Virus record (IMG/VR): IMGVR_UViG_3300020455_000892
Location: 1 to 64,000 of that record
Length of the DNA stretch: 64,000 nt
Strand: one strand, 5' to 3'
DNA from: a virus
Numbering within the stretch: position 1 is the first letter of the stretch; the number at the start of each line of letters is the position of its first letter. A program made the translations under genes and the position numbers. The notes under the pieces were generated by a model that saw nothing but the letters and a program-made list of their open reading frames with translations, had not been told where the DNA came from and ran no database searches. Shown in pieces: positions 2,887 to 54,049 of the stretch.

Positions 2887-4067
2887 TTGTAGTAATTGGT
2901 GATATTATTATAGATGAATATGTTTATGGTACAAGCACACGCCTTAGTCCAGAAGCACCAGTGCCTGTTGTAAAACACCAAAAGACAGAACGTAAATTAG
3001 GTGGAGCAGGAAATGTTTACAATAACATAAAAAGCCTGTTTGAAACTACAAATCTAAGTTATCCAAATGATGTAACACTTATTGGTTATAGAAATGATAC
3101 TACAGATTGGCCCGTAGAACTATTTTGTACACATATGCCACTAAAGCAAAGAATTTATGCTGACAAACACTATATTACTAGAATTGATAGAGAACAAACA
3201 ATAGACAATAGCACATTGTTTGATTATGTAAAAGAACGTGTACATAACTGTACAGTGGTAATAAGCGATTACAACAAAGGTACCATACAAGATCCGCAAC
3301 GTTTAATAAAGATACTCAAAGATAATCACTGTTATGTAATTGTCGACCCTAAACAACATTTAGATTTATATGCAGGTGCTGATGTAATCAAACCCAATAA
3401 AAAAGAATATGAAGAATATAATAATGGTGTTGATACTAATATGGTTGTAACAATGGGTGCAGATGGTTATATGATAAATGATGTACACTATCCAACACAA
3501 CAACAAGATGTATATGATGTTACAGGTGCAGGTGATACATTTTTAGCAGTGATGTCATACTTTTTAGACATGGGTGAAAGTTTAGAGTTTGCCTGTGAGA
3601 TGGCTAACAAAGGTGCTGGTGTAAGTGTACAACACAATGGTGTTTACGTTGTTGCTTGGAAGGATTTGGATCCTCGCCCTACAGTTGTGTTTACAAATGG
3701 ATGTTTTGATTTACTGCACCGAGGACATGTTGAAATGCTAAAAGCAAGTAAAGCACTCGGAGGGCATCTTGTAGTAGGATTAAATACTGATGCTAGCGTT
3801 AAGAGATTAAAAGGCGATACTAGACCAATTAACAACGAAACTGATAGAAAAGTTGTGCTTGAAAGTTTGGATTTTGTTGACGAAGTAATATTATTTGATG
3901 AAGATACTCCACAAAAATTAATAGAAAGAATACGTCCGGATATTATTACAAAAGGTGGAGACTATACTGTAGATACTGTGGTTGGAAATGAGCTTGCAAA
4001 AGTTGTAATAATACCAACAGTAGAAAACCAAAGCACAACAAATACAATCAAAAGGATGGCATTATGA
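2883..4067 (+). CDS. hldE: Bifunctional heptose-7-phosphate kinase / heptose-1-phosphate adenylyltransferase
   Basis: RLSPEAPVPVV, GGAGNV, SDYNKG, DVTGAGDTF (PfkB domain); FTNGCFDLLHRGH, GLNTDASVKRLKG.RP, KGGDY (cytidylyltransferase-like domain). Confidence 0.93.
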   Translation: MIVVIGDIIIDEYVYGTSTRLSPEAPVPVVKHQKTERKLGGAGNVYNNIKSLFETTNLSYPNDVTLIGYRNDTTDWPVELFCTHMPLKQRIYADKHYITRIDREQTIDNSTLFDYVKERVHNCTVVISDYNKGTIQDPQRLIKILKDNHCYVIVDPKQHLDLYAGADVIKPNKKEYEEYNNGVDTNMVVTMGADGYMINDVHYPTQQQDVYDVTGAGDTFLAVMSYFLDMGESLEFACEMANKGAGVSVQHNGVYVVAWKDLDPRPTVVFTNGCFDLLHRGHVEMLKASKALGGHLVVGLNTDASVKRLKGDTRPINNETDRKVVLESLDFVDEVILFDEDTPQKLIERIRPDIITKGGDYTVDTVVGNELAKVVIIPTVENQSTTNTIKRMAL

Positions 4068-51003: not shown

Positions 51004-51022
51004 TAACTACTCACTTAACTAT

Positions 51023-51054
51023 GATAAATAACTTTAACATATATTGTATTTATA
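51023..51054. promoter_or_regulatory. Face-to-face late promoters
   Basis: GATAAATA on + (51023-51030) and TATAAATA on - (51047-51054). Confidence 0.55.
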
Positions 51055-51065
51055 GGCAAAAACTA

Positions 51066-51929
51066 ATGGAAAATCCACTACAGAATTATTATCGACATAA
51101 AGATATCTATGTTAGACTTCCAACTGGAGGTAAATGGATGAGAGAACAACCAAATCTTACCGCTGATGGTGAAATTGGTGTTAGAGCTATGACTGTAAGA
51201 GATGAACTTTTGCTTAACATACCAGATGCATTATACAATGGGCAAGCCATTTACGAGCTTATAGAAAGCATTTGTCCTGACATTGGTGATGCTAGCGATA
51301 TGAGTTTGCCTGATGTAGATGTAATTATGCTAGCCAGCAGGGCTACCAGTTACGAAAAAACTTTTCCTGTTGAGGCAACATGTTCACATTGTGAAACTGC
51401 TCAAATGTTTGAAGTAGATTTACAAAAAGTTTTAGGTAATGTGAAAAGTGTATGGGAGCAAACAGAATTAGAAGTTGATGGTCTAGTTGTAGAAATGAGA
51501 CCAAACACTGTATCTGCCATACATGCAAGCAATATCAAAGTAAGTGAGACCAGCAGAGTGCTATCTTCAATGAAAGAGACTGAAACAGTAGATGAGCAAT
51601 TAAAAGTACAGTACAGCGAAAACATTCAGCAGATTGCGGCGGCAAATGTAGTTTTACTAGCAGATTCTATTGTTAAAGTTACAATGCCAGACGGAAAGAC
51701 AGTCGATGAACCACAACACATTATTGATTGGTTAACAAATTCAAATAGAAAAGTAAATGACATACTCACCAAACAACGCTTGAGAATGAATCTAAATGGA
51801 ATAGATAAAACTTTTAAGTTTACTTGTGCTCAAGAAGATTGTGCAAAAACATTTAGTGCAGATATAGAATTTAACCCAAGTTTTTTTTTCACCAGCAACT
51901 CCGACTTCAAAAGAACTCTGAACAAGTAA
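51066..51929 (+). CDS. Baseplate hub assembly protein / tail assembly chaperone (T4 gp26-like)
   Basis: MENPLQNYYR...YVRLPTGG, MTVRDELLL..PDAL.NG, D.DVI..A.R.ASY-like segment, CSHC and C..EDC, ends NPSFFF. Start at 51066 preferred over 51021. Confidence 0.72.
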   Translation: MENPLQNYYRHKDIYVRLPTGGKWMREQPNLTADGEIGVRAMTVRDELLLNIPDALYNGQAIYELIESICPDIGDASDMSLPDVDVIMLASRATSYEKTFPVEATCSHCETAQMFEVDLQKVLGNVKSVWEQTELEVDGLVVEMRPNTVSAIHASNIKVSETSRVLSSMKETETVDEQLKVQYSENIQQIAAANVVLLADSIVKVTMPDGKTVDEPQHIIDWLTNSNRKVNDILTKQRLRMNLNGIDKTFKFTCAQEDCAKTFSADIEFNPSFFFTSNSDFKRTLNK

Positions 51930-52144
51930 ACAAACTTATTTCATACCACGAAAACAATAGTCAACGCATAAGAGAAAGTCTATTAGAAATAGTTCTATAT
52001 ACTGAAGGTGCATTTAATTACACAGACCTTGAACAATATCCTTTGAGATTAATACAAGATATCAACAAAGCAATCAAGAACAAGAATGACAAGATGTCTG
52101 AAGCTATGGATAAAGCAAAAGGTACTAATCGTAGAAGATTTTAA
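51881..52144 (+). CDS. -1 frame extension of the gp26-like protein (gp51-like), probably via programmed frameshift
   Basis: Open -1 frame from the T9 run: FHQQLRLQKNSEQVNKLI...YTEGAFNYTDLEQYPLRLIQDINKAIK...RRRF*; no early ATG. Confidence 0.65.
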   Translation, partial: FFFHQQLRLQKNSEQVNKLISYHENNSQRIRESLLEIVLYTEGAFNYTDLEQYPLRLIQDINKAIKNKNDKMSEAMDKAKGTNRRRF

Positions 52145-52149
52145 ACATT

Positions 52150-52535
52150 CTTTCGAAGAGCTAAAGCTCATCGTCATACTCATTTCATTTCGTATGATAA
52201 TTTTTTTAAACATTTTTTTATATGATACGTTATTACCTTGTTTTCAGTCGCACTTAGCTTGTTACAGCCAAGTGCAAAAAAAAAACGAAACGGTCATTAC
52301 CCCTCTCCAGCTCGCATCGTTATAGTATAACCTATTGCTAGGCAGAGGCGGTTTTGCTATACCCCTTTACATACTGCTTAAAACGCAGAAACACTCTAAG
52401 CCATAACGACGACTTTTGAGTTATCCGTGGGTTACAATGGCACAGTAGAGCCCACTCTTTTGGTTCGTTTCCCTCAGGCAAGTTCCGACGGCCCGCATTG
52501 CTACGAACAATCTCAATGCTTTTAACAAAGAGGGT
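52150..52535 (-). ncRNA. Putative structured non-coding RNA or cis element, family not recognised
   Basis: About 390 nt with no credible gene and many inverted repeats, some closed by GNRA-like loops on the minus strand (see findings). Confidence 0.55.
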
Positions 52536-52538
52536 ATG

Positions 52539-52967
52539 TTACGACTGTTGTCTGTTAAGTGATTCTATAAGTGCCTTGGAACTGCCAACTCTTACGTTTA
52601 TAATGCCGTTATAGTATTCATCAGTTTTAAGAACTTCACGGTCAAACTGTTCTTTGGCTTCTAAATAGCTTAGTTCGCCTCTGCTGGTGCAGTAGTACAG
52701 TATTTCTCTTGTAAAGTTTTCAGGGCCTAATTGTTCAACATCTTCATTTAAATGGTCACTGCTTCCCCAATAAGTTCGCCAGTCACTTTCTTTAGTTGAA
52801 CGTCTTTTGTTTTTCTTGCCTTTGAGAGGTTTTTTAGTTACTTTAAATTTTGCCAGTTTTTTGCCAATGTACTTTTTGCCGTTTGTGAGGTTGGTAATAA
52901 GATATACAAATCCTATGTATTCCTCACTGATCTCTTCTACTATTTTGCCTTGATAAGTCCATTGCAT
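52539..52967 (-). CDS. GIY-YIG family endonuclease (single domain)
   Basis: GFVYLITN..NGKKYIGKK, WRTYWGSS, REIL......LSYLEA.EQ, YYNG.I. Confidence 0.82.
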   Translation of the reverse strand: MQWTYQGKIVEEISEEYIGFVYLITNLTNGKKYIGKKLAKFKVTKKPLKGKKNKRRSTKESDWRTYWGSSDHLNEDVEQLGPENFTREILYYCTSRGELSYLEAKEQFDREVLKTDEYYNGIINVRVGSSKALIESLNRQQS

Positions 52968-52984
52968 TGTTATTCATTACAACA

Positions 52985-53014
52985 ATTATATATATCTTCT
53001 TTGCCGTTTGTCAA
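52985..53014 (-). promoter_or_regulatory. sigma70-type promoter for the GIY-YIG gene and downstream element
   Basis: TTGACA-18 nt-TATAAT. Confidence 0.6.
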
Positions 53015-53019
53015 CCGGT

Positions 53020-53712
53020 TTAGTGCATGTTTTTTAAGATTTCCCAAGTTTGTTTATATCCTTGATCAATCTGATGAAAATGTGTACTTGCTTGTGCGGC
53101 TGTAAAATCATTACCGCCTGGGTTGCAATGGTCACCAAAATAAATTGTTGTACCTTCTTGTTCTCTTATAGCTTGACTCTTGTCACAGCTTTTCTTAAAA
53201 ATATCTATGCTGGTCTGACCAGCTACTTGTGCAATGCTATCATCGAATTCTTGATTGTAATACATTGCTACTGTATCTCTACCTTTGTTAGTCTTTTCCC
53301 AATTGGCGTATCTAGCACGTTGATCCCAGTTAGCATTACGTCCAACTATGCTAAAGTTTGCAGTACCTGTACGGTGTTCGATATGATTACCAGTCATTTC
53401 AGGATAATCAAAAGTGTGTAAGATAGTTTGTAAAAAAGTTTGTTGAGCTTCTGATAATGTCCAATCGCTTTTGTATACTTCTTTATTACCAACAAACACA
53501 TGGTTACCACTGCAATGATATACTCGTGCAAAACTATTGGTCAAGTCTTCTCCAATTTGTTCAATTGTTTTAGGTCTATCACTTCCTGTTACAATCATAC
53601 ATGTATTGTTTGCAACAAAATCAAACATAAACTCTTCGAAATCTGGCTCTATTGCACGTCTTGGGTCAGTAAGTGTGCCATCAACATCAAACATAAAAAT
53701 TTTATTCGTCAT
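53020..53712 (-). CDS. HAD-IIB hydrolase, eukaryotic-type phosphomannomutase-like
   Basis: FDVDGTLT, VTGSD, IEHR....NFSIVGR, GQTSIDIF....DKSQ, YFGD..NPGGND. Confidence 0.8.
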   Translation of the reverse strand: MTNKIFMFDVDGTLTDPRRAIEPDFEEFMFDFVANNTCMIVTGSDRPKTIEQIGEDLTNSFARVYHCSGNHVFVGNKEVYKSDWTLSEAQQTFLQTILHTFDYPEMTGNHIEHRTGTANFSIVGRNANWDQRARYANWEKTNKGRDTVAMYYNQEFDDSIAQVAGQTSIDIFKKSCDKSQAIREQEGTTIYFGDHCNPGGNDFTAAQASTHFHQIDQGYKQTWEILKNMH

Positions 53713-54049
53713 CTATTTCTTTCATTTGTTCAGGATACCATTTGTGTAGTAAATCGATTGGCAACTTTTTTTGTTTTGTTGGTGCAAAATGTGGCATGTC
53801 TTTTATAGTAAACGTTGGCGACAGTCCTGTGATAGTACTACCGCCGCCTAGCATAGTGCTTGTGCATGTAGCATGTTGTGACAAATCAACTGTATATGCC
53901 ATTGAGCCTTCTGCAAGTGTTCCAATAGTTGCGTCTTCAGGTACAAATGGTGCTTCATTTGCCATCCATGTTTCAAAGTCGTCATCACCTTTGTTACCTT
54001 TATTATTAAAGCTATCTATGTGTATTGTGTATTCGTCATCATCATTCAT
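53702..54049 (-). CDS. Hypothetical protein
   Basis: Acidic ORF overlapping both neighbours; probable start MNDDDEY. Confidence 0.5.
   Translation of the reverse strand: MNDDDEYTIHIDSFNNKGNKGDDDFETWMANEAPFVPEDATIGTLAEGSMAYTVDLSQHATCTSTMLGGGSTITGLSPTFTIKDMPHFAPTKQKKLPIDLLHKWYPEQMKEIDDE

Follow-up and report, generated by a model that had tools for sequence, protein, structure and literature searches.

The DNA analysed here, referred to as the window, covers 64,000 nucleotides (nt), positions 1 to 64,000 of the virus record IMGVR_UViG_3300020455_000892 in IMG/VR, an 82-kb record judged 21% complete. Set among T4-like genes, a structured non-coding RNA (ncRNA) of ~320 nt, which defines what is called here the W class, is encoded on the minus strand at 52216–52538, directly behind the gene of a GIY-YIG nuclease (52539–52967, minus strand). 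The initial annotation of the window had drawn attention to a gap at the stop codon of the nuclease gene, and had read it as a new phage ncRNA. The gap measures 394 nt (52145–52538) and is poor in open reading frames (ORFs), the longest of which encodes 47 amino acids (aa). GC content is 45–52% at 52250–52550, versus about 30–39% in the surroundings. Related records measure 108–198 kb, are rated 31–55% complete, and therefore derive from giant phages. The RNA is a member of an uncatalogued family from uncultured marine giant T4-like phages.

Relatives were collected from IMG/VR in two ways. A degenerate pattern drawn from the core of the W RNA retrieved 84 stretches; with the window, the loci are 85, and hold 57 distinct RNAs. 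When the nuclease protein was used as query, at least 584 relatives were found; 80 were kept, and the duplicates L005 and L014 were dropped. At least 300 nt were available downstream of the nuclease gene at 62 loci. W RNAs reside in 13 of them, window included, RNAs of a sister class, called type 2, in 30, and neither class in the remaining 19. In one close relative, L003, the same place is occupied by a different non-coding element, a type-2 RNA of ~350 nt. Overall, 85 W-class contigs and more than 120 type-2 contigs were gathered.

The minus strand of the W region folds better than shuffled sequences (z -2.63, versus -1.54 for the plus strand), and RNAalifold proposed 59 pairs for 14 W sequences, 17 of them compensatory. 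Ten helices, one of which is a pseudoknot, were named and counted in a MAFFT alignment of the 57 distinct sequences (alignment A4). Their 55 pairs are formed in 94.5% of the cases, versus 88.3% in shuffled alignments and 36–45% when the partners are slid. Changes on both sides were observed in 20 pairs (222 cells). Covariation reaches 0.223, versus 0.114 in shuffles, with 0/500 shuffles as high and values not exceeding 0.053 for slid partners. P2 and P4 are only 73–77% paired in A4, because MAFFT misplaces some variable stems. Several G-U pairs, constant in all or many sequences, are valid on the minus strand only, which is therefore the RNA strand. Taken as a comparison of sequences, these data argue that the W RNA is real and intricately folded.

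Helix P1 (52530–52534 with 52471–52475) is formed by alternative complementary residues in different relatives (CCCUC/GAGGG, GCCUC/GAGGC, GCUUC/GAAGC, CCCCC/GGGGG, UCCCC/GGGGA). The P1 span (52471–52534) encloses the variable hairpin P2 (52504–52508 with 52491–52495), in which all 5 pairs are changed on both sides, and the invariant words AAGCAUUGAG and CGGANCUUGC. P3 (52427–52455) is an invariant GUGGG/CCCAC hairpin; the inner P3b (UAC/GUA) is 100% paired, and two of its pairs feature changes on both sides. P4 (52393–52421) has 4 pairs changed on both sides, and an alignment-free check recognized at least 12 different stems, with a native mean of 6.9 base pairs (bp) versus 4.7 for swapped partners. 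The loop of P4 holds the motif CGUUAU (52403–52408), which pairs with AUAACG (52318–52323), located 80 nt downstream, to form the pseudoknot PK1. All 6 PK1 pairs are 100% paired, with CG>UA and GC>UG changes and 2 pairs changed on both sides. The region between the two PK1 strands houses P6 (CUGC/GCAG), the invariant P7 (AGGGGU/GCCUCU) and P8 (CCUA-GCAA-UAGG), all at 52331–52388, and an extra GUUU/AAAC pairing across the P7 loop covaries in a separate alignment. A run of ten U (52276–52285) directly precedes P9 (52250–52275), a 12-bp hairpin which is 100% paired, features a UA>CG change, and shows several G-U/A-U alternations valid on the minus strand only. The U run measures about 7 to 10 residues among relatives, and is substituted by CUUUUGUC or GUUCGGUC in some.

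Most of the helices that the initial annotation had picked out correspond to helices of this fold. The long-range CGTTAT/ATAACG pair is the pseudoknot, the CTGC/GCAG and CCTA-GCAA-TAGG helices recur in the 57 homologues, in which the GTGGG/CCCAC helix is invariant, and the hairpin at 52250–52275 is P9, with G-U pairs valid on the minus strand only, one of which had been remarked upon at the time. The proposed GCATTG/CAATGC and CTCTTT/AAAGAG pairings are discarded, being 69% paired, with 0 compensatory pairs, and no better than shuffles.

No sign of a protein was found in the gap. Variable columns are distributed 53/47/44 by codon phase, and the length of 751/831 gap runs is not divisible by 3. 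The lack of 3-nt periodicity, along with the 47-aa limit on ORFs, rules out a coding remnant or a split DNA-binding domain. Searches of Rfam 15 gave chance-level matches only for the region at E ≤ 10, nothing for the whole window at gathering scores, nothing beyond chance level in 20 related loci, and no match beyond chance level in 12 type-2 loci at E ≤ 1. The RNA matches none of the Rfam group I and II introns, tmRNA, RNase P and ribozymes. ARAGORN detected no tRNA or tmRNA in the window, and a tmRNA is ruled out by both tools. Blastn searches in 'distant' mode of 50,697 phage records, with the W RNA and with one type-2 RNA, produced no match. The portions of the literature that were accessible contain no description of an RNA beside this nuclease family. 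The new phage ncRNA of the initial annotation is thus borne out by covariation, by the lack of a coding signal and of Rfam, tRNA or tmRNA matches, and by RNA-library contigs of four studies. Lack of covariation, an Rfam match or a degenerate gene had been named in advance as arguments against it; all three were looked for, and none was found.

The 3' part of the RNA is marked by a word present twice. Box 1 (GGGGUAAUGACC, 52292–52303, minus strand) contains the first copy, GG(U/A)AAU in 57/57 sequences; box 2 (GGUAAUAAC, 52229–52237, minus strand), conserved in 57/57, contains the second. The two boxes flank the U run, P9 and a linker (GACUGAAAAC, 52240–52249, minus strand), also conserved in 57/57. 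The twin word is GGUAAU in the window and GGAAAU in both boxes of L168, as result of a double U>A change. At the DNA level, the repeated GGTAAT(G/A)AC word pointed out by the initial annotation is found in 5 copies in the window, versus 1.23 expected. Type-2 RNAs have the same order of parts, written in other letters: a ..CUCAC-AUGAA.. box is followed by a hairpin, by UGACUGAAAC, and by a ..CUAC-AUGAA.. box. The 5 nt that follow AC are identical between the boxes in 99/99 loci and in 102/102 distinct sequences, in which eight forms of the word are represented (ATGAA, ATAAT, ATGAT, ATAAA, ATCAA, GTGAA, AGGAA and ATGAG, in DNA letters). The letters just before the box words stay different from each other, and the spacing between the boxes varies. 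To our knowledge, none of the bacterial or phage RNAs described so far has direct repeats kept identical yet free to change.

Each word seems to be tied to its twin. By mutual information over the type-2 RNA, only the other box tracks each word, and the same was observed when tracking columns were sought over 1.4 kb, including RNA, nuclease gene and 500 nt downstream. Within ±1.5 kb, the words have no 7-mer complement. Pairing of one box with the other through CAUG was considered and discarded, as it is broken by the variants. Likeness of the word to the 5' untranslated region (UTR) of the nuclease gene, noticed in the window, is not kept in other loci. A small ORF or a ribosome hop through the boxes was similarly set aside: spacers are not multiples of 3, and variants follow no start or stop logic. 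Copies which are identical yet free to change point either to an outside partner reading both by pairing, or to a process requiring their sameness.

The nuclease is a SegE-type protein of 142 aa, made by the catalytic domain only. In agreement with the stand-alone GIY-YIG nuclease of the initial annotation, it matches PF19835 (E 3.3e-36, 124.7 bits versus a cut-off of 25; residues 3–123 on profile positions 1–123) and phrog_447. About 20 residues are left past the domain, and no C-terminal DNA-binding domain is present. The match to TIGR01453 is limited to 27 bits, versus a cut-off of 56, and to profile positions 2–86 of 215; a sequence search of the PDB found no relative. In 8 homologues compared, 79 columns are invariant, including the GFVY and KKY(I/V)GKK motifs, which denotes strong purifying selection. 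G19-F-V-Y22, Y33-(I/V)-G35, R55/R56, E88 and N120/N124 are invariant in 8/8; the conserved Arg, Glu and Asn presumably belong to the GIY-YIG active site.

A sigma70-type promoter matching the consensus at 12/12 positions (TTGACA-18-TATAAT, 52985–53014, minus strand) precedes the nuclease gene, and probably marks, to judge from the letters, the start of a joint nuclease and RNA transcript. The best promoter score is at least 10/12 in 58/77 W-class loci. Many type-2 loci carry GGTAAGTA 8–12 nt ahead of the start codon of the nuclease gene, in place of a Shine-Dalgarno-like sequence, and the same loci are devoid of the sigma70-type promoter of W loci. P1 begins 4–7 nt past the stop codon of the nuclease, and there is therefore no room for a separate promoter. 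Parts of the stretch are contained in 13 rows of RNA libraries. In 4 RNA-library runs, from 4 studies, contigs cross the junction between ORF and RNA (52460–52664, 52366–52552, 52527–52816, 52422–52664, 52457–52913). The initial annotation had predicted a promoter co-transcribing nuclease and RNA; the promoter sequence is confirmed, and co-transcription is suggested by the layout and by the contigs over the junction. Contigs break at the U10 run in two of the RNA-library studies, but the length of the run differs between strains, and nothing was therefore drawn from these breaks.

The association of the two genes is strict in one class and less so in the other. A GIY-YIG gene is found upstream of the RNA in 83/83 W loci with enough sequence, and in 89/99 type-2 loci, identified by the RNA pattern alone. 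Intact nuclease genes are absent at 10/99 type-2 loci. In 8/99, other genes reside upstream (a PF24608 PD-(D/E)XK nuclease in L288, a class II aldolase in L254, family-less ORFs in others), often in different genomic contexts. Only GIY-YIG fragments (residues 55–142 and 109–137 by tblastn) precede the intact type-2 RNA in L245, where the nuclease gene looks decayed or rearranged.

Conversely, nuclease homologues which are 71–96% identical in aa sequence, with intact motifs, are found beside W RNAs, type-2 RNAs, a third element, or none of these. Neither W nor type-2 RNAs are present at 19/62 nuclease loci, and in the cultured OM43 phage Melnitz the nuclease homologue follows nrdB, and has only a short gap behind. 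The third element is structured, conserved and enriched in GC, measures about 400 nt, and was identified in five of these 19 loci, L038, L045, L052, L058 and L081 (about 1850–2500). Unlike the W and type-2 RNAs, it is located on the upstream side of the nuclease gene, with gp26 as its other neighbour; 22/94 predicted pairs are compensatory (5 sequences). In the L038 group, it folds better on the plus strand, which is that of the nuclease (-74.7 versus -58.2 kcal/mol for the minus strand); its assignment to the minus strand was consequently dropped.

Signs of mobility were also noticed. In contigs found through gp26 the gap is 89–96% identical, though the gp26 proteins are 57–70% identical (tblastn). 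A 1.65-kb block (about 52100–53750), including the RNA, the GIY-YIG gene and a phosphomannomutase-like gene (PMM-like gene), is 92–100% identical in L004, L005 and L007, and the flanking genes are 40–80% identical per 50-nt bin; the gp26 proteins of the phages sharing the block are 59–70% identical (tblastn). The block resembles a tract of recent gene conversion or transfer. One nuclease family beside at least three dissimilar RNAs or none, together with a recombination-like block, fits a mobile endonuclease gene settling by conserved RNA genes, and a co-evolved ribonucleoprotein fits these contexts less well. We infer that the nuclease is a habitual, movable neighbour of the RNA, rather than a dedicated protein partner. 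Of the partnership envisaged by the initial annotation, in which the RNA forms a ribonucleoprotein with the nuclease, the linkage (83/83) survives; near-identical nucleases beside unrelated RNAs or none speak against it, and the proposal is not supported as it was formulated, since sister RNAs also follow a PD-(D/E)XK nuclease, an aldolase and other genes.

We favour, with a probability of about one in two, the view that the W RNA is an independent early ncRNA of ~320 nt, multiply pseudoknotted, which acts in trans and resides beside a homing-type nuclease gene. An early transcript would start at the sigma70-type promoter, with the nuclease first and the RNA as its 3' part. The nuclease would be a free-standing homing-type gene, which lodges beside conserved RNA genes and may drag its own flanks along by gene conversion. 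The RNA would most likely act in trans, its conserved knotted core serving as a scaffold. The 3' module, i.e. the hairpin and GACUGAAAAC flanked by two single-stranded copies of the word, might engage a 6–7-nt complement outside the RNA locus, and either bind two copies of the target or toggle on one complementary sequence.

Some data weigh against this view. Linkage to the GIY-YIG gene is absolute in the W class (83/83), and the nuclease has no DNA-binding domain and is subject to strong purifying selection. Both observations equally fit a functional pair, and the features of the nuclease keep the idea of a partner alive. The contigs spanning the junction are low-depth (2–7x) and denote presence in RNA libraries only, DNA carry-over being possible. 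A search for a target of the words, over ±1.5 kb, was negative. The W word is nearly invariant, so co-variation in W rests on one sequence. The homology of W and type-2 RNAs is, moreover, unproven, and the twin-box argument for the window therefore rests on shared architecture. A W profile found no type-2 sequence in nhmmer searches, and a covariance model of the W 3' module hit the right places in 2/26 type-2 loci only, with E values of 0.17 and 0.99. The grouping of W and type-2 RNAs into one family is accordingly not established.

According to a first alternative, which is unlikely, the nuclease is RNA-dependent: the RNA would be the targeting module, and the two words short guides, by which two copies of the enzyme are directed to repeated or symmetric DNA, for homing or for attack on rival phages. 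The linkage in 83/83 W and 89/99 type-2 loci, an RNA which begins where the ORF stops and depends on the promoter of the nuclease, and a protein reduced to the catalytic domain (PF19835 at residues 3–123 of 142) are all in line with this hypothesis. So are the words, which differ between lineages as guides do, yet match each other, and the third structured element, which also adjoins the same nuclease. The same hypothesis has to face proteins 71–96% identical residing beside RNAs without detectable similarity, or beside none (19/62 loci; Melnitz), RNAs located behind unrelated genes, and words which measure only 6–7 nt and have no complementary target within 1.5 kb. A more specific version is quite improbable: the RNA would act as a dual-guide scaffold, the GIY-YIG nuclease having shed its DNA-binding domain, and the words, held at the foot of a conserved handle of hairpin and linker, would bring two copies of the enzyme to a repeated or symmetric DNA site.

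A cis-acting role is rather doubtful. The RNA would be a 3' UTR element, the fold of which protects, terminates or processes the nuclease mRNA, without a function of its own. The element abuts the upstream ORF in all contexts seen, and closes an early transcription unit, opposite a late gene which converges on it. A 3' stabiliser, however, hardly needs about 320 nt, pseudoknots and long invariant single-stranded stretches, and the U run precedes P9 rather than following it. A scan for intrinsic terminators detected 0 terminator-like sites at the locus. The same RNA is found, in addition, behind unrelated genes, and its nucleotide sequence is better conserved than the flanking protein genes.

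It is similarly quite improbable that the RNA is self-processing, either as a ribozyme or as a substrate of a host or phage RNase and ligase, with cuts at the twin words by which the hairpin module is released, circularised or spliced out. The compact pseudoknotted fold with invariant junction nucleotides, two identical sites around a defined module, and homing-type nuclease neighbours, as found with introns, would suit such an activity. Yet the contigs of the 4 RNA runs contain no joints or skipped segments, though some parts are uncovered and contigs miss rare forms. No ribozyme or intron of Rfam is matched, and a fixed catalyst with identical sites needs no free co-variation.

Still more improbable is a replication-origin transcript, an idea also put forward in the initial annotation, forming a persistent hybrid in the adjacent AT-rich DNA which primes leading-strand synthesis, with the words and the U/A run acting as DNA. 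A strong early promoter, the AT-rich stretch 3' of the RNA (52145–52228) and the U10/A10 run are in line with this idea. The T4 origin ori(uvsY) adjoins genes 25 and 26, and the place of the RNA by baseplate genes resembles it. G-U covariation denotes, however, selection on RNA folding over the whole 320 nt; type-2 members are often devoid of the U run, and the family is found in other genomic contexts too. Finally, a functionless decayed gene or chance structure, which has the lack of annotation as its sole support, is scarcely credible, being already contradicted by compensatory changes, by the absence of codon periodicity and by conservation in 85 contigs.

The locus shares features with several known systems. 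T4-like phages house free-standing GIY-YIG homing endonucleases, the Seg proteins, beside conserved genes, and SegB resides in the T4 tRNA cluster. As in the Seg cases, a SegE-type GIY-YIG gene (PF19835) of a T4-like phage has a conserved gene for a structured RNA as its neighbour, high identity extends over the nuclease and both flanks as one block, and relatives may have the nuclease gene or lack it, or carry it in another orientation. Unlike Seg and I-TevI-type proteins, the nuclease consists of the catalytic domain only (142 aa). Purely selfish genes are not usually conserved at 71–96% over very different contexts, as this one is, and the neighbour is a 320-nt RNA, not a tRNA as for SegB. 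HEARO and omega RNAs (IscB/TnpB, OMEGA systems) also are large structured RNAs which adjoin a small nuclease gene, probably in the same transcript, and feature a short variable segment near the RNA 3' end. In contrast to OMEGA systems, the nuclease is of the GIY-YIG rather than the RuvC/HNH type, no transposon context is seen, and no match to the Rfam HEARO model was found (E ≤ 10). The variable word measures 6–7 nt, is present twice, and no complement of it was found within ±1.5 kb. Co-occurrence is not obligate, as 19/62 nuclease loci have neither W nor type-2 RNA and 10/99 type-2 loci no intact nuclease.

As far as the accessible part of the source goes (10.1101/2024.12.08.627333), the 'ornate' RNAs GOLLD, ROOL and OLE of phages and bacteria are likewise big, heavily structured, phage-borne and non-coding. 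The W RNA is smaller (about 320 nt) and shows no sequence or model match to them. We know of no co-varying direct repeats in GOLLD, ROOL or OLE. The Polynucleobacter-1 motif (RF01718) is, according to the part of its description that could be consulted, an aquatic-metagenome RNA motif of unassigned function, and is in this respect similar. Its model does not recognize the W RNA or its relatives, as it found nothing at E ≤ 10 in the source record, at E ≤ 1 in 5 related records, or in 12 type-2 loci.

The family is widespread and strongly conserved in giant marine T4-like phages without cultured representative, and is not included in Rfam. The constraint on the repeats suggests that an unseen partner takes part, in a mechanism of base-pairing or copy type. 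Naming the partner of the words would give the function of the RNA, and settle whether a GIY-YIG nuclease devoid of additional domains can be RNA-directed. If the dual-guide hypothesis were true, the system would be a programmable RNA-guided nuclease, with a fold so far not known in combination with guide RNAs. Even if read conservatively, the locus neatly illustrates how genes for homing-type nucleases colonise the side of an RNA gene.

The genes next to the RNA are arranged in two converging sets. A Rad50/gp46-like gene, two small ORFs, the PMM-like gene and the GIY-YIG gene are encoded on the minus strand. The PMM-like gene (53020–53712, minus strand) is of eukaryotic type (PF03332, E 3e-21; phrog_29277) and belongs to the phage early region. 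On the plus strand, a gp26-like baseplate hub gene (51021–51929; PF12322, E 4e-14; phrog_150) is convergent with the nuclease side, and the gap at 52145–52538 therefore separates convergent transcription units. The same layout (gp46, PMM, GIY-YIG, RNA, gp26) was found in L292 (NZGL01000008.1), a 108-kb contig of the Gammaproteobacteria metagenome-assembled genome MED685; as a phage contig binned into a bacterial genome, it provides at most a weak hint on the host. In L003, an 86-aa ORF (3009–3269, minus strand) with a CxxC...H-rich look and no Pfam match separates the nuclease gene from the type-2 RNA, and could be a split-off DNA-binding module.

An AT-rich spacer (52145–52215), including hairpins at 52158–52169 and 52174–52197 and a following T7 run on the plus strand, separates the RNA from the gp26 side, and is probably the end of the plus-strand gp26 transcript. 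These hairpins, regarded by the initial annotation as terminal parts of the RNA, fall outside it, because the stretch is kept in L003 in spite of the different RNA found there; the terminator scan called no site in this spacer. A stop at 51929, just past a T9 run (51881–51889), ends the gp26-like ORF, and another frame is open to 52144 on the same strand. The product of this out-of-frame extension is kept in L003 (65% aa identity), and a programmed frameshift in the gp26-like gene, at 51879–52144, is possible.

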